Source: a virus
Taxonomy: Duplodnaviria; Heunggongvirae; Uroviricota; Caudoviricetes
Length of the DNA: 38,370 bases
Virus record (IMG/VR): IMGVR_UViG_2645727901_000003
Location: 1-38,370 of that record
Direction: 5' to 3' (one strand)
The notes beneath the pieces were generated by a model. The model had not been told where the DNA came from and searched no databases. It saw only the letters and a list, made by a program, of their open reading frames with translations. Positions 114 to 8,347 of this stretch are shown piece after piece. Made by a program: the position numbers and the translations under genes. The first letter of the stretch is position 1. Each line of letters opens with the position of its first letter.

Positions 114-908
114 TCACCAAATTCGCTTCGGGCTTGGTGTATTCTCTCCAGCTAACGCTTTTTCATCAGCGGCTATCTGTTGTGATTCTTTATCTGCCTG
201 AGCCTGTGCCAGTGTTGCTGCAGCGTTTTGCTGGGCTACCAGGAGCGAGCGGATTTGCAGCAGCTGGTTCGTTTGAGCACTTGCAAGCTGGTTAGCGGCC
301 TGAATAGCTTCCATTTGCCCTTGTGCGCCGGTTGCCTGAGTTTGCAAATCTGCCAGGTTATCAGCATCGCTTTGCAGTGTTTCTTGCTGTTCATCAAGAG
401 CCTTAAAAACGGCGTCATTGGCCTTTTTACGCGCCTCAGAGCTGTTCTGTTCTGCTTTACGCAGTGCGCTGATTTCATCTGCAGTACATTCAACATTACT
501 GTTAAAGCACGGTGATGAGCGGTAGTAATTCACGTCCTGATAACGTTTCAGATATGAATCAAGACTCCCGGCCTGATTTTTGTAGTAATTAAGAGTGTCC
601 TGCGCCTGCAACAATTTGTTGATGGTTGAATTGGCCTGATCCCAGATATAGGCCGCAGGTGCGACGGTATTTTTGAGCATGTTTTCATACTGCTGCAGCT
701 GCGTCTGGTACTGCTGGATCTGTTTAGTCACAGCCTGAACGTTGTTAACTGCGCTGATTGTGGTCTGAACCACATTAGTGCCATCAATAACGGGAATTCC
801 GGCCTTAACCGGTAATGCCATGACGGACGCCACGAAAGGAACTATTAAAGCTTTTTTAGCGGCTAAAATCCCTCTTTGTAATGAAACCACTCGGAACATT
901 AAATTCAT
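114..908 (-). CDS. trbJ: P-type conjugative transfer protein TrbJ-like (VirB5 family)
   Basis: 264 aa; N-terminal signal-like segment then AGIPVIDGTN, YQDVNYYRSSPC and ANQLASAQTNQLLQIRSLLVAQQNA motifs recalled from RP4 TrbJ; ATG at 908 with GAGGTGA Shine-Dalgarno. Confidence 0.7.
   Translation of the reverse strand: MNLMFRVVSLQRGILAAKKALIVPFVASVMALPVKAGIPVIDGTNVVQTTISAVNNVQAVTKQIQQYQTQLQQYENMLKNTVAPAAYIWDQANSTINKLLQAQDTLNYYKNQAGSLDSYLKRYQDVNYYRSSPCFNSNVECTADEISALRKAEQNSSEARKKANDAVFKALDEQQETLQSDADNLADLQTQATGAQGQMEAIQAANQLASAQTNQLLQIRSLLVAQQNAAATLAQAQADKESQQIAADEKALAGENTPSPKRIW
855..867. promoter_or_regulatory. KorB operator (OB)-like palindrome TTTAGCGGCTAAA
   Basis: Exact match to the IncP-1 OB consensus TTTAGC(G/C)GCTAAA; lies in the 5' end of the trbJ-like ORF. 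Confidence 0.55.
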
Positions 909-989
909 TTGCTCACCTCTTTTTCATCAGTTCAGTAATATTTAACACACTGTCTTTTAACAGACGCAGGTATATAGGAAACCACACAT

Positions 990-1343
990 TTATTTATCCA
1001 AGATTTTATCCATAATGTTCCTTAGTTCTTGCCGAGTTGATTCTATTTTCGCAAGCAAGGTTCTTATCAGGGTGGGTGAAAAATCAACTGTTCGAGGATC
1101 ATTTGCGAGCCATAATTTAAGTAATCCGCCAAGTCTTCCAAGATCAGCGTTTACTCGGCTAAGTTCATTAACCTGTTTTATATCTACGATAGAATCAACC
1201 TGATAACCCATTGCAACTCTACGAACAAAACAGGCAACACTTAATCCAGATGCTTCTGCATTTTCTTGGATGAGAATTTTTTCTTCGGGTAAACAATAAA
1301 CTTTTATTGGCGTACTATTTTTTCTAGTCTGAGTAACTTTCAT
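990..1343 (-). CDS. Putative mobilization/relaxosome accessory protein (MobC-like)
   Basis: 117 aa from ATG at 1343 with GGAGAG Shine-Dalgarno (ORF track extends to 1430); LxRxxxxLxxLxxxL pattern reminiscent of MobC; sits beside the oriT/oriV-like intergenic region. Confidence 0.4.
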   Translation of the reverse strand: MKVTQTRKNSTPIKVYCLPEEKILIQENAEASGLSVACFVRRVAMGYQVDSIVDIKQVNELSRVNADLGRLGGLLKLWLANDPRTVDFSPTLIRTLLAKIESTRQELRNIMDKILDK

Positions 1344-1734
1344 ATAGCTCTCCATACAGGCGGTAGCCTGGCAGAGCAGGACGCCCTTGAGCCGCGATGC
1401 GGCGAATAGGGAGTGGTAAAGTTGGAACACCGTAGCGGTGGGCCTACTTTACATGTCCTGCCCTCCTGTTGCCGTAGTATATCTGTGCACATCAATGTGT
1501 ATTTCAGTGTACAGGATGTGTTTTCTTAGCGTATTAATATAGGATTACTCGGGTAAAGATCTGCAGCAAATGTGTTTCTTGCAAGGAAACTATATTTCTC
1601 CCTTTTGAAAATGACCTTTAGTAGTTATAAATGGGCGTCCACCAACTGTATTTATGTTTCGATATATTGTAAGAAATATTTTATTTTCTCATGCACTTTT
1701 TTACTTACATTGTCAAAGCATGTGCATTGCAGAT

Positions 1735-1747
1735 TTTAGCGGCTAAA
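1735..1747. promoter_or_regulatory. KorB operator (OB)-like palindrome TTTAGCGGCTAAA
   Basis: Exact OB consensus, next to an AT-rich stretch (about 1600..1730) in the origin-like intergenic region. Confidence 0.6.
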
Positions 1748-1960
1748 ATCTTCCTCCCTATGCCTAAAGCTAGGGGCGTACCTCATATGTCATAAAACCT
1801 ACCTCAAGTGTCAATATACCAAACGAGTAAGTAATCTCTTCTTCTGGCGTACAACCATCGGCCTTTGGCCGATTCTAGATTTGAAAGCGCCTGCTCAGGC
1901 AGGTGATTTCAAAGACTGTAGATCCTGAACGATCCTGTAAATACTGCTGAATAGTAAAAA

Positions 1961-2044
1961 ATCGGGCCGCTGTAGCACGCTACCGGGCCGCTATAACACG
2001 CTATCGGGCCGTTGTGACACAATATCGGGCCGTTGTGACACGTT
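1961..2044. repeat. Four tandem 21-bp iterons (putative oriV)
   Basis: ATCGGGCCGCTGTAGCACGCT / ACCGGGCCGCTATAACACGCT / ATCGGGCCGTTGTGACACAAT / ATCGGGCCGTTGTGACACGTT in head-to-tail array; followed by TTATCCTAG (DnaA-box-like). Confidence 0.75.
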
Positions 2045-2795
2045 TTATCCTAGAACCGTTCAAATCAATTCCAATTTCCAGCAATTGCACGGAATCTTCT
2101 TTCAATCTCCGACGATAGTTACGTAAAGTCATATTACTCGTTCCTTCACCGCATACTGCTAATATCAACGTATCCATATACCACCCTCCTAAAGGATTAT
2201 TACTATGGGTTAAGACATGACGAGCGACTGCCTGGCTAATACCATGTTGTAGCCGAGCTATGGGGCCAGGATGATAATAAAATGGCAAATCTTTTTTGAG
2301 TAACATCGCTAATGCAACACCCAGACGGACACGCCATAAACGGCGTTCTCCCCCAGTCAAAGGATCTGGACGCGTCATAGGTGATGGCACTACATGATCG
2401 ATCAGTCCCCCTATTATACAGTCGCCGCTTTTCTCCAGCTCTGGCGTTATAATTTCAACTGTTGCGACGCGCAGATCTAAAAGCAATTTCTGTATACGAC
2501 CATAACTGTATTGTGCATCGGATAGCGTTCGGCGTACTTTCGCTGGATCTACTAATAATTCGATTCCACCATCAGAAATTTCACGACGTTGCTCGGCAAC
2601 ATATAATATTGTCTCTACGATATCGGCATGACGCTGTCCGAGCCGTCCGGTAACACGACAACGACCAAAACTAGTCTCCATCCATTGTCCCTTCACCTCC
2701 TTAGGACGCTGGCTTGGCTGGTACAGAATTACTCGGGCTTGCCAAGCTGTACTTGTGGGTGCCACTTTATTACCAGTTGTCATTGTCAGCGCCAC
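2001..2795 (-). CDS. Putative iteron-binding replication initiator (IncQ RepC-like)
   Basis: 264 aa; C-terminal segment GGWYMDTLILAVCGEGTSNMTLRNYRRRL resembles recalled RSF1010 RepC; iterons directly at its 3' end; overlaps helicase gene end. Confidence 0.45.
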   Translation of the reverse strand: MALTMTTGNKVAPTSTAWQARVILYQPSQRPKEVKGQWMETSFGRCRVTGRLGQRHADIVETILYVAEQRREISDGGIELLVDPAKVRRTLSDAQYSYGRIQKLLLDLRVATVEIITPELEKSGDCIIGGLIDHVVPSPMTRPDPLTGGERRLWRVRLGVALAMLLKKDLPFYYHPGPIARLQHGISQAVARHVLTHSNNPLGGWYMDTLILAVCGEGTSNMTLRNYRRRLKEDSVQLLEIGIDLNGSRIKRVTTARYCVTTAR

Positions 2796-3627
2796 TCCAG
2801 GTAGATGTTCTTTCTTTAGTAAGCTTTTTATTATTCTTCGAGCTGAGCGCCGTTATTTTTAATACTCCCCCCTCATGTCTCTGTAACCAACGATCTGGCG
2901 CACGTTCTCCATAATTTACTTTATTTATTCCAAATCTAACAAATTGACCTCGAACATCATCAGAAATACCATACGTCTTCGCTTCCAAGGCGGTCATGCC
3001 CGCCAGATAAGATTGCCACCGTATATTATCAACCAGGACGCTACTACCCCTGCTTGCCTGCTGTATATCACCAACCCCCATCGTGGCAGCGCCTTTGTTT
3101 GAATGGTGTAGAAATATAATCGAACATCCAGTATCAGCAGCAATACCTTCTAGCTTTCCAATGACTTTGGACATTGCTGCGCTATTATTCTCATCCTCCT
3201 GGTGGAAACGGCGAAGAGTATCCAAAATTATTAAACGTCTACCTTTTGAAACTTCATTGATCAAGTTGCTCCAATCCGGCAAGAAAATATTTGGACACTT
3301 CCCTACCAAAGGTTCGACCAGTAGCTTATCAGCTACAATCTGCTGCTGACGTGCTGTTAGATATTTTCCCAACGCATATAAACGATGGTGAACGATGGTT
3401 TCAGAGTCCTCCACAGGTAAATATGCCACCAACCCAGTCGGATATTCACCAAAGTTTAAAAGATCTACACCACAAGTAATCTGCACAGCCAATTGTAATG
3501 CCAGCATTGACTTTCCAGCGCCTCCCGGAGAAACAATCGCTCCGATAGTACCAATAGCCAAATTAGGCAAGACGTAATCAATTGGTTGTGGCTTAGCTTC
3601 AAATGCTTCCATTATGTTCAATGACAT
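2770..3627 (-). CDS. RepA-like replicative helicase (RecA-fold ATPase)
   Basis: 285 aa; Walker A SPGGAGKS, Walker B-like LIILD; ATG at 3627. Confidence 0.65.
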   Translation of the reverse strand: MSLNIMEAFEAKPQPIDYVLPNLAIGTIGAIVSPGGAGKSMLALQLAVQITCGVDLLNFGEYPTGLVAYLPVEDSETIVHHRLYALGKYLTARQQQIVADKLLVEPLVGKCPNIFLPDWSNLINEVSKGRRLIILDTLRRFHQEDENNSAAMSKVIGKLEGIAADTGCSIIFLHHSNKGAATMGVGDIQQASRGSSVLVDNIRWQSYLAGMTALEAKTYGISDDVRGQFVRFGINKVNYGERAPDRWLQRHEGGVLKITALSSKNNKKLTKERTSTWSGADNDNW

Positions 3628-3632
3628 TGCTG

Positions 3633-3863
3633 TTACCTACCTAAAACAACACCGGGTCTGGCCGCTTTAAACATTGCTGATTTACGATCCGCAATCCACT
3701 GTTCCACTTCGGATAACTGCCATGCAACATTTCGACTAGTAAGTGCTATACGGCGAGGAAACTCGCCTCGCTGTTCAAGGTTATAAATAGTGCGGGCTGA
3801 CAATGGGATCATTTCCAGAAGTGTTTTTCTGTTAATGAGCGTGCTATGTGCCTTTGTTTGCAT
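3633..3863 (-). CDS. alpA: AlpA-family HTH regulator (prophage CP4-57-type / excisionase-like)
   Basis: LSARTIYNLEQRGEFPRRIAL...WQLSEVEQWIADR matches AlpA HTH pattern; ATG at 3863 with perfect AGGAGG (ORF track start at 3884 is a TTG codon). Confidence 0.7.
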   Translation of the reverse strand: MQTKAHSTLINRKTLLEMIPLSARTIYNLEQRGEFPRRIALTSRNVAWQLSEVEQWIADRKSAMFKAARPGVVLGR

Positions 3864-3940
3864 CTGCCTTCCTCCTGTTTCCAATCAGGCCTATACAATG
3901 CCAAGCATTACCACTTGCTAAAACCTATTCATTGGCTAAA

Positions 3941-4912
3941 ATGGTTGACATGAAAATTACTATCTGGGAAGGCTGTGACCTCACAGTTGCAGCTGCAATT
4001 AAATTATTTGTAGAGCGTAGTTATCCGTACTCCATATTTTCACGGAGGTATCCAATACTGCGTCTCATACAGGAAGTTATTGATCCAGCAGTAGCTGCTT
4101 ATGTAAATTCCCTGCCACCAAGTCATAAAGACTACATTTCTGGAGTAAATCTAGGATTTAGTGATGTACTTAAAAAAGTGGGCTTAAACGTCGTAGTACA
4201 GGCACAAAGACTTCTTTTGCGTAATTTCGTTCTGACTTTAGATCAACAAACTTCTCTTGATAAATGCTTTACCGCTACGATTGAGTCTCTTATTGAATTA
4301 GTCAGTGAGTGCGCATCCAAGCGGCCGAAGAAATCCTCTCCTGCAAAAGGAGTAACTATAAATTCACAGCGTAAGCTCGGTTATTGCGAGTTCTGCGGTA
4401 ATCTAACCGAATTTTCCAAGTTGATCAGTGAGATATCAGAATTTGTTGCTAACGATAATGAGTTCCCCGTTCATGAAAAACAGGTCCTTAGTCATCGATA
4501 TTGTTCTGACCATAGGCCCAAACTCACCAATGGTCTATGGAATCCCAAATACAGACAAGGAAAGCGGTCTCTCGAACAGTTCAATAAAGAATTAATAAGG
4601 CTTAGACGGCAATGCGCTAAACCGCATAAAGCTAACGCAAACACAGGGGATATATTGATTGATACCTATTTTCATGAGTGGATGCAGGGTCAAACTTTAA
4701 CCCCAGCAGATCTAGATAAACTTAGGAATATTGCCAGACGAATGGTTGACTCCAAATTCACTGATACTAAGAAAAAAATAATCATATTAAAACACCAAGG
4801 TTTTAACCAGTTTGAAACCGCACAGGTTTTAGAAAAAAATCACTACACAACTATGACAAAGCAGGCTGTGTCCAAGGCCTTAGCGTCTGTGAGGAAAGAA
4901 TTTTATATTTAA
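3941..4912 (+). CDS. Hypothetical cargo protein with Cys-containing central region and C-terminal HTH-like segment
   Basis: AT-rich ORF; GYCEFCGN...YCSDH; C-terminal FETAQVLEKNHYTTMTKQAVSKALASVRK helix-turn-helix-like; start uncertain (ATG 3941 or GTG 3848). Confidence 0.4.
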   Translation: MVDMKITIWEGCDLTVAAAIKLFVERSYPYSIFSRRYPILRLIQEVIDPAVAAYVNSLPPSHKDYISGVNLGFSDVLKKVGLNVVVQAQRLLLRNFVLTLDQQTSLDKCFTATIESLIELVSECASKRPKKSSPAKGVTINSQRKLGYCEFCGNLTEFSKLISEISEFVANDNEFPVHEKQVLSHRYCSDHRPKLTNGLWNPKYRQGKRSLEQFNKELIRLRRQCAKPHKANANTGDILIDTYFHEWMQGQTLTPADLDKLRNIARRMVDSKFTDTKKKIIILKHQGFNQFETAQVLEKNHYTTMTKQAVSKALASVRKEFYI

Positions 4913-5337: not shown

Positions 5338-5350
5338 TTTAGCAGCTAAA
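5338..5350. promoter_or_regulatory. KorB operator-like palindrome, centre variant TTTAGCAGCTAAA
   Basis: Perfect 13-bp palindrome differing from OB consensus only at the central base. Confidence 0.45.
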
Positions 5351-6173: not shown

Positions 6174-6186
6174 TTTAGCGGCTAAA
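6174..6186. promoter_or_regulatory. KorB operator (OB)-like palindrome TTTAGCGGCTAAA
   Basis: Exact OB consensus about 55 bp upstream of the membrane-protein gene start. Confidence 0.6.
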
Positions 6187-6242: not shown

Positions 6243-7433
6243 CTACTTACTAGTCCATTCATCAATCATATTCGCCCAATCTTGTAGCATCTCGGCCCTC
6301 TGCTCACGATATTCAGCCTTGTTATAAACAGCTCGTACCCCCTTTTGTTCATGGGCAAGGCACTTCTCAATCCAGTCAGTATTGTACCCGGCCTCATGTA
6401 GCAAGGTGCTGGCAGTACGCCGTAAGTCATGGGGACCAAACTTAGGTAACAAGTCCCCTTCTTTCTGAGCCAGACGATACGTCAGTGTCAAAACCCGGTT
6501 TAAAGTAGCGCTACTCATTGGCGCATCGGAATCGTACCGCGAAGGAAGGATAAAATCAGAGCTACCGGCAAAGGTTTTGAGAGCAATCATAATATCCATT
6601 GCCTGTCTGGAAAGAAAAACCAAATGTGGATTACGTCGTTTCATCCTCTCCTTTGGTATCGTCCATAATGCCTCACTAAAATTGATCTCGTTCCAGGTTG
6701 CGTTAGTAAGCTCACTTTTACGTACCATCGTTAACAGCAAAAGTTTAACCGCTGCTCTGATTGATGGCGTCGTTCCTACCCGTTCCATGTACCGATACAT
6801 CAGACCAATTTCAACTGGCGTCAATGCCCTGTCACGAGGCTCAAATTTCGCTATGCTTGCAGGCCGTACCAGATCAGCGGGATTCTCAACCTTCTGACCG
6901 CGCTCAATAGCCCAGCGATAGACTTGCAATACAATCTCTCTGGCGTGCACAGCTGTCGCCGGTGCCCCTCTCTCGACAATGTTATCGGTTAATGCGCGTA
7001 AGTCTTCATGTGTAATCTCGGTCAATTTCTGCTGCGCAAATTTTGACTTCAACTCCCTTTGATATACCGAACGCCGCATATCACGCGTCGATTCAGCCAT
7101 TTGATAACCGCGTAACCATTTCTCAGCCCATGCACCAAAAGTCTCCGCATCTTTGATACGAGCTTTATCTCTAGCTTTTTCCCTCGCTGGCGATCTTCCA
7201 CTGGCAACCATTTTTTTAGCTTCATGGAGCCGTTCACGCGCTTCTGCAAGCGTGATCCCTCCAACACCATAGCGGCCAAAAGTAACGGTCTCCTGTCTTC
7301 CGTTTATTGAATAGTTATAACGAAATGAAATAGTTCCAGCCGGAGTGACCGCAACATACAGACCATCACGGTCATTAACTTTATAGAGTTTCTCCTTCGG
7401 CTTAAGGTGACGCAGCCTGGTGTCAGTCAACAT
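6243..7433 (-). CDS. int: Tyrosine site-specific integrase (P4-type phage integrase family)
   Basis: 396 aa; N-terminal arm-binding-type domain (LYKVNDRDGLYVAVTPAGTISFRY), catalytic box HDLRRTASTLL and LAHEQKGVRAVYNKAEY. Confidence 0.85.
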   Translation of the reverse strand: MLTDTRLRHLKPKEKLYKVNDRDGLYVAVTPAGTISFRYNYSINGRQETVTFGRYGVGGITLAEARERLHEAKKMVASGRSPAREKARDKARIKDAETFGAWAEKWLRGYQMAESTRDMRRSVYQRELKSKFAQQKLTEITHEDLRALTDNIVERGAPATAVHAREIVLQVYRWAIERGQKVENPADLVRPASIAKFEPRDRALTPVEIGLMYRYMERVGTTPSIRAAVKLLLLTMVRKSELTNATWNEINFSEALWTIPKERMKRRNPHLVFLSRQAMDIMIALKTFAGSSDFILPSRYDSDAPMSSATLNRVLTLTYRLAQKEGDLLPKFGPHDLRRTASTLLHEAGYNTDWIEKCLAHEQKGVRAVYNKAEYREQRAEMLQDWANMIDEWTSK

Positions 7434-7553: not shown

Positions 7554-7863
7554 CATGGTACTTTTTCAAACCTGAATTCGAAACCAGAGAGTACCATCAA
7601 AAATTCCATTGAAAAAACCGTGCTTCCCGTTGCTAACAGCTGCCAGAAAGTGCCAGATACAAAAACAAAAAAGCCCGCAGTTACGCGGGCTTAGAGGTAC
7701 TTTACTGCTTTTACGTGCAGGCTGTTGCCAGACGTTAAATCATTCCCACTCAATTATTTACGGACAACATAAGTAATTGACTGACAACAACTTTTAAAGA
7801 AACAAAATTTCCAATACCGTTTTATATACCGTCGCCGGAAATCAGTACCATGAAAAATGCCAT
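7554..7863. repeat. GTACCAT-containing direct and inverted repeats (candidate integrase arm sites / att region)
   Basis: AGTACCATCAAAAATTCCAT (7590..7609) vs AGTACCATGAAAAATGCCAT (7844..7863), 17/20 identical; inverted copy CATGGTACTTTTT (7554..7566). Confidence 0.4.
7663..7695 (-). terminator. Intrinsic terminator closing the prophage lysis operon
   Basis: GCCCGC-AGTTAC-GCGGGC hairpin followed on the minus strand by UUUUUUGUUUUUG. Confidence 0.7.
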
Positions 7864-7864
7864 G

Positions 7865-8347
7865 TCACCTGGTCAGCGAATCGTACTGCTTTTCACAGAC
7901 TCTTCCTGCTTCGGCTGCCCGATCAGCGTACTCTGCCAGTTGTCGGTTTCGCTCGAGAGATTTGCTGAGCAAGTCGGCAAGCAAAACACCGGTGTCTGCG
8001 GCTGACGGCCCAGCGCCGACAATGGCGTTATACTGCCTGAGCTGCTCACGGATGGCAACGAGCTGTTGCTGCAACCTGCCAGCGCGAGCGGCAGCATCAA
8101 GAGCATCATTGCGCGCCTGGTCGATCCTCTGCTGCGCTTTACGTTCATTGATTGCTTTCTCCTGTTCGTCGTGCTGACGAGCTTTATCATCTTCGGTTTT
8201 ACGGTCTGTCTTTGCCTGCGCATACCCGGCGTCATACTGTCGGCTGCCATGAACATTCCAGGCAACAACGCCGACGATCACCAGAGCAGCAAGCATCGCC
8301 ACGATAAGCAACTGTTTCCAGTACGCTTTCATGAATGCTCTGATCAT
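7865..8347 (-). CDS. Rz-like i-spanin
   Basis: 160 aa; N-terminal TM anchor then charged coiled-coil region; ATGA overlap with endolysin stop. Confidence 0.65.
   Translation of the reverse strand: MIRAFMKAYWKQLLIVAMLAALVIVGVVAWNVHGSRQYDAGYAQAKTDRKTEDDKARQHDEQEKAINERKAQQRIDQARNDALDAAARAGRLQQQLVAIREQLRQYNAIVGAGPSAADTGVLLADLLSKSLERNRQLAEYADRAAEAGRVCEKQYDSLTR
7873..8109 (-). CDS. Rz1-like o-spanin lipoprotein embedded in Rz (+1 frame)
   Basis: Internal start giving MMLLMLPLALAGC lipobox; 78 aa. Confidence 0.5.
   Translation of the reverse strand: MMLLMLPLALAGCSNSSLPSVSSSGSITPLSALGRQPQTPVFCLPTCSANLSSETDNWQSTLIGQPKQEESVKSSTIR

Follow-up and report, generated by a model that had tools for sequence, protein, structure and literature searches.

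The window analysed here is a 38,370-nucleotide stretch of Caudoviricetes-assigned DNA (IMG/VR record IMGVR_UViG_2645727901_000003, positions 1 to 38,370), and the interval of interest, 1344-2795, lies near its left end. The interval and its flank contain a repA gene for an IncQ-type hexameric replicative helicase (2770..3627, minus strand), a gene for a 260-amino-acid (aa) putative iteron-binding initiator (2001..2783, minus strand), four 21-bp iterons (1961..2044, minus strand) and, beyond the iterons, non-coding DNA leading to an IncP-type origin of transfer (oriT). We conclude with good confidence that the interval carries the vegetative origin (oriV) of a PIME1-type integrative mobilizable element together with its replication genes; the element inserts at the 3' end of guaA and takes IncP conjugative plasmids as helpers.

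The iterons run head to tail at 1961-1981, 1982-2002, 2003-2023 and 2024-2044 and read, in gene orientation, AaCGTGTCACAACGGCCCGAT, AttGTGTCACAACGGCCCGAT, AGCGTGTTATAGCGGCCCGgT and AGCGTGCTACAGCGGCCCGAT. Tandem Repeats Finder (TRF) describes the array with a period of 21, 3.9 copies, 83% matches and a score of 101, in the same register. No second array with a period above 10 was found by TRF in the 38-kb window, and across 200 shuffles of the first 5 kb, arrays with a period of at least 15 never exceeded a score of 44. Scanning one genome per species for the 260-aa protein yielded 78 encoding loci, mostly from Gamma- and Betaproteobacteria, with a few from Alphaproteobacteria and some in metagenome bins labelled as other phyla. 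In ~67 of 73 loci across many genera, TRF places at or just after the initiator 3' end an array whose period is 21 bp or, with two units taken as one, 41/42 bp; of the 70 arrays detected by a GCCYG-anchored search, 66 have exactly four units spaced 21 bp apart. The family consensus in gene orientation, AGCGTGnCACAnCsGCCCGAT, varies at positions 6, 7, 12 and 14 around a conserved core, CGT..CACA..GCCCG, and iterons are 83% identical within a locus versus 74% between loci. An initial annotation of this DNA, made from the letters alone, had already noted four 21-bp direct repeats at 1961..2044. They are real, far above chance and conserved in number, period and position; their absence from homologous elements, which that annotation named as a refutation, is the opposite of what nearly all relatives display. 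In-phase 21-bp spacing and this copy number are typical of iteron origins such as those of IncQ, RK2 and pPS10.

The array and the initiator gene overlap. The minus-strand open reading frame (ORF) spans 2001-2795, with an ATG at 2783 and a TAG stop at 2001-2003, and iterons 3 and 4 encode its last 14 codons, in agreement with the earlier placement of the repeats at the 3' end of this gene. The innermost iteron is coding sequence in essentially all members of the family and encodes a conserved C-terminal motif, T-A-A-R; in some members, including that of the window, the stop codon lies one or two iterons further on, adding 7-residue repeats. Residues 253-260 of the structural model are disordered, and the last 7 residues of the window ORF are probably incidental. 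Entry of the ORF into the iterons, which had been taken to leave the true C-terminus uncertain, is therefore a conserved arrangement rather than an annotation problem, with T-A-A-R drawn from the innermost iteron across the family.

RepA, 285 aa long, matches Pfam AAA_25 (E 2.7e-29) and aligns with the RSF1010 RepA structure (PDB 1G8Y) over 264 residues (3-266) at a phmmer E of 1.2e-112. It is 62-65% identical to the IncQ helicase and about 62% identical to RepA of IncQ-1 plasmids, making it a homologue of the hexameric helicase expected of an IncQ replicon. The RepA-like helicase proposed upstream is correctly named, and a match of the Rep-like proteins to non-replication families, the second outcome offered as a refutation, did not materialise for a protein this close to the IncQ helicase. 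The start of the initiator gene and the end of repA overlap by 14 bp, as is also seen for RSF1010 repC (represented by the RSF1010-like plasmid NC_016859), for small-plasmid homologues and for the canonical repC of a Citrobacter guaA island.

The 260-aa protein occupies the RepC position and has no Pfam or NCBIfam match, even at E<=10. None of 48 diverse family members matches PF06504, on which RSF1010 RepC scores 482 bits as a control. BLASTP against RSF1010-type RepC aligns only 36 C-terminal residues (E 0.01), and hhalign against the RepC profile returns a probability of 32-33% over only ~50 C-terminal columns (51). A sequence-profile search of the PDB with the family gave a chance match only, and the Rep_3 family (PF01051) is matched by 1 of the 48 members at chance level (E 0.092). 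We considered membership of the RepC family (PF06504) and ruled it out, given a weak C-terminal match at 32-33% only. The predicted fold is a tandem winged helix (WH1-WH2), the architecture of the iteron-plasmid Rep initiators RepA of pPS10, RepE, Pi and RctB (domains 2-3). The family has 616 matches in the clustered database, a profile search finds 451 clusters at 50% identity, and its usual name at NCBI is "ABC transporter ATPase". The label "RepC-like" given in the initial annotation holds by position and predicted fold and fails by sequence; the protein is the positional and, on the structural model, the structural counterpart of RepC and probably a very distant relative of it.

Covariation between protein and iterons is suggestive of how the two might meet. 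By mutual information, residues 218, 222 and 225, which fall in the predicted recognition helix (217-229) of WH2, are the best partners of iteron positions 6 and 7, and residues 96, 112 and 117 of WH1 are paired with iteron position 14. The pattern would fit one monomer touching both iteron halves and is confounded by shared ancestry.

The origin core was delineated by aligning the iteron-downstream DNA of 17 diverse loci and counting motifs in 68 loci. Immediately past the last iteron lies a candidate DNA-unwinding element of ~60% A+T (1921..1960, minus strand), composed of three ~10-bp direct repeats of the CAGGATnTTC type with GATC sites and then a T-run, which abuts the last iteron and is part of the conserved core. 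In relatives, direct repeats of ~10 bp and the CAGGATATTC type number two to three; those of the window lie at 1921-1946 and contain the GATC sites. Of the 68 loci, 57 have an AGGAT(N4-7)AGGAT-type repeat (first unit AGKAT) no more than 80 bp away from the iterons. Three to four tandem iterons of ~20-22 bp beside an AT-rich segment downstream of repC characterise IncQ origins, and here the 60% A+T segment directly abuts the array. Two hairpins follow, both present in the predicted single-strand fold. Hairpin 1 (1880..1913, 15-nt arms) is conserved in structure and not in sequence. Hairpin 2 (1857..1873), ATCGGCCnnnGGCCGAT, is conserved in sequence, as seen in the alignment and the motif count, recurs in 45 of 68 loci at a distance of 64-119 bp from the iterons and is a candidate priming or single-strand initiation signal. 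A by-eye comparison with the RSF1010 origin, whose ssiA/ssiB hairpins are recognised by RepB', showed no resemblance, and no cognate primase was found. Hairpin 1 was also considered as an intrinsic terminator and rejected, as a scan of 900-4100 gave no terminator-like site.

These features lie in a 657-bp non-coding stretch between traJ and the 260-aa ORF. Further from the iterons, at 230 bp, an AT-rich stretch (1591..1730) is ~70% A+T, where the window as a whole has 50.6%, and climbs to 82% at 1651-1690; it is kept only among close enterobacterial relatives. This is the AT-rich stretch reported at first, and it is free of a DnaA box. No site within two mismatches of the DnaA box TTATCCACA, the mark of a DnaA-dependent plasmid origin, occurs in 1344-2100. 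The DnaA-box-like sequence proposed earlier, TTATCCTAG (2044-2052), is not credible, having 3 of 9 mismatches to TTATCCACA and lying inside coding sequence, where it encodes S-R-I-K. A promoter scan found 7 sites versus 7.4 expected.

Plasmids provide an independent setting for the module. Eight plasmids encode the 260-aa initiator family, and pSMBC31-5K, pUL3AT and the 8.3-kb pJF-707 group each carry repA, an initiator gene with the 14-bp overlap and, directly past its stop, four 21-bp iterons of the same consensus. The repA-initiator-iteron unit is the replicon of these autonomous 5.7-9 kb plasmids. In pUL3AT (locus L082), the initiator gene occupies 8249-8995 and the iterons 8996-9005/1-71; the corresponding region of pSMBC31-5K (L081) is 2158-2991. 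Both encode members of this 250-aa initiator family, with the gene annotated "ABC transporter ATPase" in RefSeq. A 5.2-kb Citrobacter braakii plasmid (L083, 681-1492) encodes a 40%-identical initiator followed by four perfect 21-bp repeats, GTGTAGCATATTCCTGTTCGT, of completely different sequence; no repA is annotated beside it, in a gene table that is incomplete, and a relaxase-Toprim fusion lies downstream. Upstream of repA, pSMBC31-5K and pUL3AT carry a 311-aa ORF with weak, sub-threshold Toprim/DUF3991 matches, a primase candidate, and it is this slot that alpA occupies in the island.

The same plasmids bear on whether the repeats might instead be an operator or a centromere, regulating the rep operon or partitioning the circle while replication starts elsewhere. 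Such a role would suit repeats that sit at the 3' end of an operon, away from a strong AT-rich element or DnaA box, in an island that also carries sites for the ParB-type protein KorB and in which partition-related sites thus occur. It is nevertheless very unlikely. Mutation of the oriV of a sister element, at the locus with the four repeats, abolished replication of a test plasmid (10.64898/2026.01.12.698999). Small autonomous plasmids carry the same repeats directly past the initiator and no comparable array elsewhere at a TRF minimum score of 50, the sole exception being a weak 2.4-copy repeat of the C. braakii plasmid. The in-phase spacing and copy number are typical of iteron origins.

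The left part of the interval serves a different purpose. Positions 1365..1463 (minus strand) score 83.5 bits on the Rfam traJ-II motif (RF01760), whose gathering score is 40, and align with IncP plasmid oriT, including the inverted repeat and nick region. The origin had been drawn from 1344 onward; its left end is oriT rather than replication origin. The 17-nt inverted repeat lies at 1416-1452, and the nic-region homologue, ACATGTCCTG followed by CCC, predicts a plus-strand nick between 1460 and 1461. Among plasmids, this oriT matches best in the mcr-1-carrying 50-kb IncP plasmids of the p14EC001a type (74% identity over 182 bp); the nick region and inverted repeat of p14EC001a oriT (L088/L089, 35409-35600) are all but identical with their window counterparts, above all in the repeat arms. 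Because pB10 and pKJK5 fail to mobilise the E. coli PIME1 element (10.64898/2026.01.12.698999), the p14EC001a-type IncP lineage is, judging from the oriT match, a candidate natural helper. Next to oriT, traJ (990..1343, minus strand; Pfam/NCBIfam) encodes a NikA-like relaxosome accessory protein, and trbJ (114..908, minus strand; NCBIfam) a P-type VirB5-like protein.

Between the origin core and the AT-rich stretch, at 1735..1747, lies a perfect palindrome, TTTAGCGGCTAAA, the KorB operator (OB) of IncP-1 plasmids, whose sequence is confirmed in PMC11790492. This 13-bp OB is exact at 855-867, within trbJ, at 1735-1747 and at 6174-6186, and occurs with one mismatch at 5338-5350. The four matches compare with 0.03 expected, and all lie in the island, with none in the 30-kb prophage. 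At least one exact OB is present in 38 of 83 fetched loci; IncQ plasmids have none. The IncP plasmid p14EC001a has 13 OB sites, one of which sits in the trbJ 5' end just as in the window. Through such sites, KorB/IncC of the helper could partition or regulate the excised island.

Upstream of repA, an alpA-family regulator gene (3633..3863, minus strand; Pfam PF05930) directly precedes it, and the two probably form one operon; all genes flanking the iterons, from trbJ to alpA, lie on the minus strand. A divergent LuxR-family regulator gene (3941..4912, plus strand), a hallmark of the PIME1 subfamily, is annotated in RefSeq in the 99.5% identical copy of E. coli M8. A 209-aa ORF separates it from a tyrosine integrase gene (6243..7433, minus strand; NCBIfam), the gene behind the earlier description of an integrase-bearing element, which was accurate. 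At ~7741 lies a remnant of the guaA 3' end, tcattcccactc. Near it, the minus strand of 7665-7736 scores 30.6 bits for the Rfam Trp_leader in a hairpin; this candidate was set aside, as it falls below the gathering score of 41 and is probably chance or a terminator.

The chromosomes of many E. coli strains carry a 3.1-kb stretch (window 900-4000) at 99.5% identity, with matches in 206 of 5426 complete genomes, 32 of which cover at least 80% of the query. The M8 copy adjoins guaA directly and continues past trbJ into trbL, an antitoxin gene and defence-type cargo. In the window, a prophage (7741-38370) lies directly past the integrase-side end and starts at the guaA remnant. Among the ORFs scanned at ~7.8-21.6 kb, it encodes holins, a CHAP endolysin, a DUF2514 spanin-like protein, a tail spike, a Bro-N protein and a transglycosylase. 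Base composition from ~15 kb onward differs from that of the island, and the layout suggests two elements in tandem at the guaA attachment site.

At the opposite edge, the first ~105 bases, recognised by eye and which we take to be the right end of IS1, stand directly after the trbJ stop codon. Homology to intact island copies begins at ~position 100, and the trbL and cargo region of M8 falls outside the window, with IS1 and the window edge at the expected place of trbL. The window copy could on these grounds be an inert remnant, from which IS1 removed the distal island, so that excision no longer occurs and an intact origin never fires; no complete E. coli genome of the collection shares the IS1 junction. 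We regard this as unlikely, if well short of negligible, since none of repA, the initiator ORF, the iterons and the origin core is disrupted, 900-4000 is 99.5% identical to whole-island copies, and a window that ends within IS1 allows for a simple insertion with the island continuing beyond.

The initial annotation offered a second explanation beside replication after excision, namely a captured plasmid. We considered this as the recent capture of an IncQ-like plasmid by an integrase-bearing island unrelated to it, or as a co-integration of the two. A RepA ~62% identical to that of IncQ-1 and small plasmids bearing the same initiator and iterons give this some appeal. We consider it the least probable account of all, because the order int...alpA-repA-initiator-iterons-oriT-traJ-trbJ-trbL beside guaA recurs in Morganella and E. 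coli, and the initiator-iteron unit is found in 78 loci of many genera. Neither the IncQ-type primase nor the relaxase or MobC was found, alpA sits where the plasmids have a primase gene, and plasmid megablast of the region against PLSDB returned nothing beyond a traJ/oriT match. A RepB-type primase and a MobA relaxase had been named as genes to look for past the left edge. The window's island portion and the Morganella locus have no RepB primase, nor does the intact copy of E. coli M8, judged by its annotation and a Pfam scan of its hypothetical proteins; a relaxase was likewise not found in the intact M8 island or the Morganella locus. The module is intrinsic to a widespread family of guaA-inserting islands.

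That family was defined as PIME1 in a January 2026 preprint (10.64898/2026.01.12.698999) by guaA insertion, int, divergent alpA/luxR, repA and a four-iteron oriV with a 60% AT segment holding one direct and two inverted repeats, then a 75% AT region, followed by an IncP-like oriT, traJ, trbJ and trbL. Both tested PIME1 elements were induced by IncP helper plasmids. With such a helper, PIME1MmNCTC12028 of Morganella excised and amplified ~8-fold; amplification was strongly reduced in a repA deletion and absent in int, luxR and alpA mutants, and cloned repA-oriV rescued a temperature-sensitive vector, which repA or oriV mutants did not (10.64898/2026.01.12.698999). The PIME1MmNCTC12028-type initiator, at Morganella locus L084, is ~67% identical to that of the window.

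Autonomous replication after excision, the first suggestion of the initial annotation, gains support from a sister element that excises and amplifies ~8-fold, from replication by its repA-oriV and from a module that is the replicon of small plasmids. The iterons, RepA, the fold and slot of the initiator, the shared plasmid replicon and the sister-element experiments together make an island origin of functional type quite probable. Several points weigh against this assignment. The experiments concern the sister element, not the origin in the window, and the preprint credits repA as the replicase, with the intervening ORF undiscussed (10.64898/2026.01.12.698999). Iteron binding by the 260-aa protein is something we infer, and the covariation that would speak for it carries the ancestry confound. 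The island has neither a primase nor a DnaA box that would account for the priming step. Finally, the IS1 interruption right after trbJ may have cost this copy its distal end and hence its ability to excise.

We propose the following sequence of events for the origin so assigned. In the presence of an IncP helper, the island would excise through Int together with AlpA and LuxR, as shown for sister elements in the preprint, and the alpA-repA-initiator operon would be expressed. The 260-aa winged-helix initiator may then bind the four in-phase 21-bp iterons in the manner of a RepC analogue, with WH1 contacting the GCCCG half and WH2 the CGTG-CACA half. The iteron-proximal, moderately AT-rich repeat segment (1921-1960) would open, and the IncQ-type RepA would be loaded there independently of DnaB. 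Because the island lacks a RepB primase, we propose priming by a host or helper primase, possibly at the two conserved hairpins. The outcome would be transient, plasmid-like multicopy replication of the excised circle, which could stabilise it and raise the dose of the oriT-bearing transfer substrate.

The element family, the four-iteron origin and helper-dependent replication are already described in the 2026 preprint; primase, KorB and operator are never mentioned there, and repC appears in figure legends only (10.64898/2026.01.12.698999). Measured against the literature searched, what appears new is the 260-aa protein in its probable role of initiator, how broadly the iterons and origin core are conserved, the absence of both primase and DnaA box, the connection with "repC-less" IncQ-3 plasmids and the KorB operators. 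By its gene content, the replicon appears to work without the IncQ primase, a point beyond the preprint, and on the fold prediction the role of initiator probably belongs to a winged-helix protein unannotated as such, known at NCBI as "ABC transporter ATPase". We rate as evenly balanced a joint proposal that the 260-aa protein, not RepA, recognises the origin; that it belongs to an unrecognised winged-helix initiator family (at least 451 clusters at 50% identity) that displaced RepC beside the IncQ-type RepA in PIME islands and "repC-less" IncQ-3 plasmids; that the islands lack the IncQ primase; and that the KorB operators, one of them between origin and oriT, could serve partition or regulation by KorB/IncC of the helper. 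Displacement of RepC, if true, would solve the "repC-less" IncQ-3 puzzle. Helper-induced replication affects island stability and the efficiency of spread, including that of defence and resistance cargo, and the KorB sites suggest a route to helper sensing or partition hijacking. The main value of the work is to confirm that a replication module is recognisable from raw sequence.

Comparison with known systems places the window element closest to PIME1. It shares the guaA-targeting integrase (6243-7433; guaA remnant at ~7741; M8 copy abutting guaA), divergent alpA and luxR-family regulators in the same orientation scheme as int, repA and a four-iteron oriV with a ~60% AT segment of direct and inverted repeats followed by a further AT-rich region. 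From the transfer set, an IncP-like oriT, traJ and trbJ are present, and IS1 and the window edge stand where trbL would be expected. The 17-nt oriT repeat (1416-1452) matches the 17-bp repeat reported for the E. coli element PIME1EcRHB23-C07, and the Morganella locus L084 has the same ORF and the same iteron, repeat and hairpin layout base by base. Unlike the described elements, the window copy is cut by IS1 after trbJ and adjoins a prophage rather than guaA directly, and its sequence has no DnaA-box candidate; the preprint gives no description of the 260-aa ORF, the primase absence or the KorB sites.

The comparison with RSF1010 (IncQ-1) is one of shared plan and exchanged parts. RepA is homologous, the initiator gene lies directly downstream with the 14-bp overlap, the initiators are of the same fold class, and the order of initiator, iterons, AT-rich segment, hairpins and oriT is the same. 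RSF1010 has 3.5 x 22-bp iterons, the RepB' primase and ssiA/ssiB, whereas the window iteron is 21 bp and unrelated in sequence. The window initiator is not a Pfam RepC (hhalign 33%), and the module lacks the RepB primase and mobABC, is chromosomally integrated and depends on a helper. Of the marks of IncQ membership, neither a PF06504 RepC nor a RepB' primase, usually fused to MobA, was found in the window island.

Closer in their initiators are pSMBC31-5K and the IncQ-3 cluster III plasmids pUL3AT and pJF-707, with 61-67% identity, the same 4 x 21-bp iteron consensus and the same repA overlap. They differ in being autonomous and carrying MOBP mobilisation genes, and the IncQ-3 origin has, distal to the direct repeats, the GC-rich palindromes typical of IncQ-3. 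According to a study published in 2020, the cluster III plasmids pUL3AT, pJF-707 and p435_c4 lack repC, which its authors speculate is dispensable (PMC7557826). Our sequence comparison indicates that the "repC-less" pUL3AT and pJF-707 carry an alternative initiator with iterons of its own.

GIsul2-type guaA islands, for which RepA/RepC are listed (PMC5704250), share the integration site, the alpA-repA-initiator order, the 14-bp overlap and trbJ/trbL, and differ in having a true PF06504 RepC in the slot taken by the alternative family in the window. A guaA island on the Citrobacter europaeus chromosome (L087, 7001-7900) has the same alpA-repA layout with a canonical Pfam RepC. Because this RepC stands in the same slot, the two initiator types are, as far as gene order and sequence tell, interchangeable partners of one helicase; the comparison indicates that the IncQ-type helicase pairs with either of two initiator families, in plasmids and islands alike. 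The IncC-dependent SGI1 resembles the window element in its helper-induced excision, followed by plasmid-like replication, as an integrative mobilizable element, and differs in its unrelated Rep_3-type RepA replicon, helper, integration site and regulators. SGI1 hijacks the parABS system of its helper (PMC10954446), which by analogy is a possible parallel to the KorB sites of the window.

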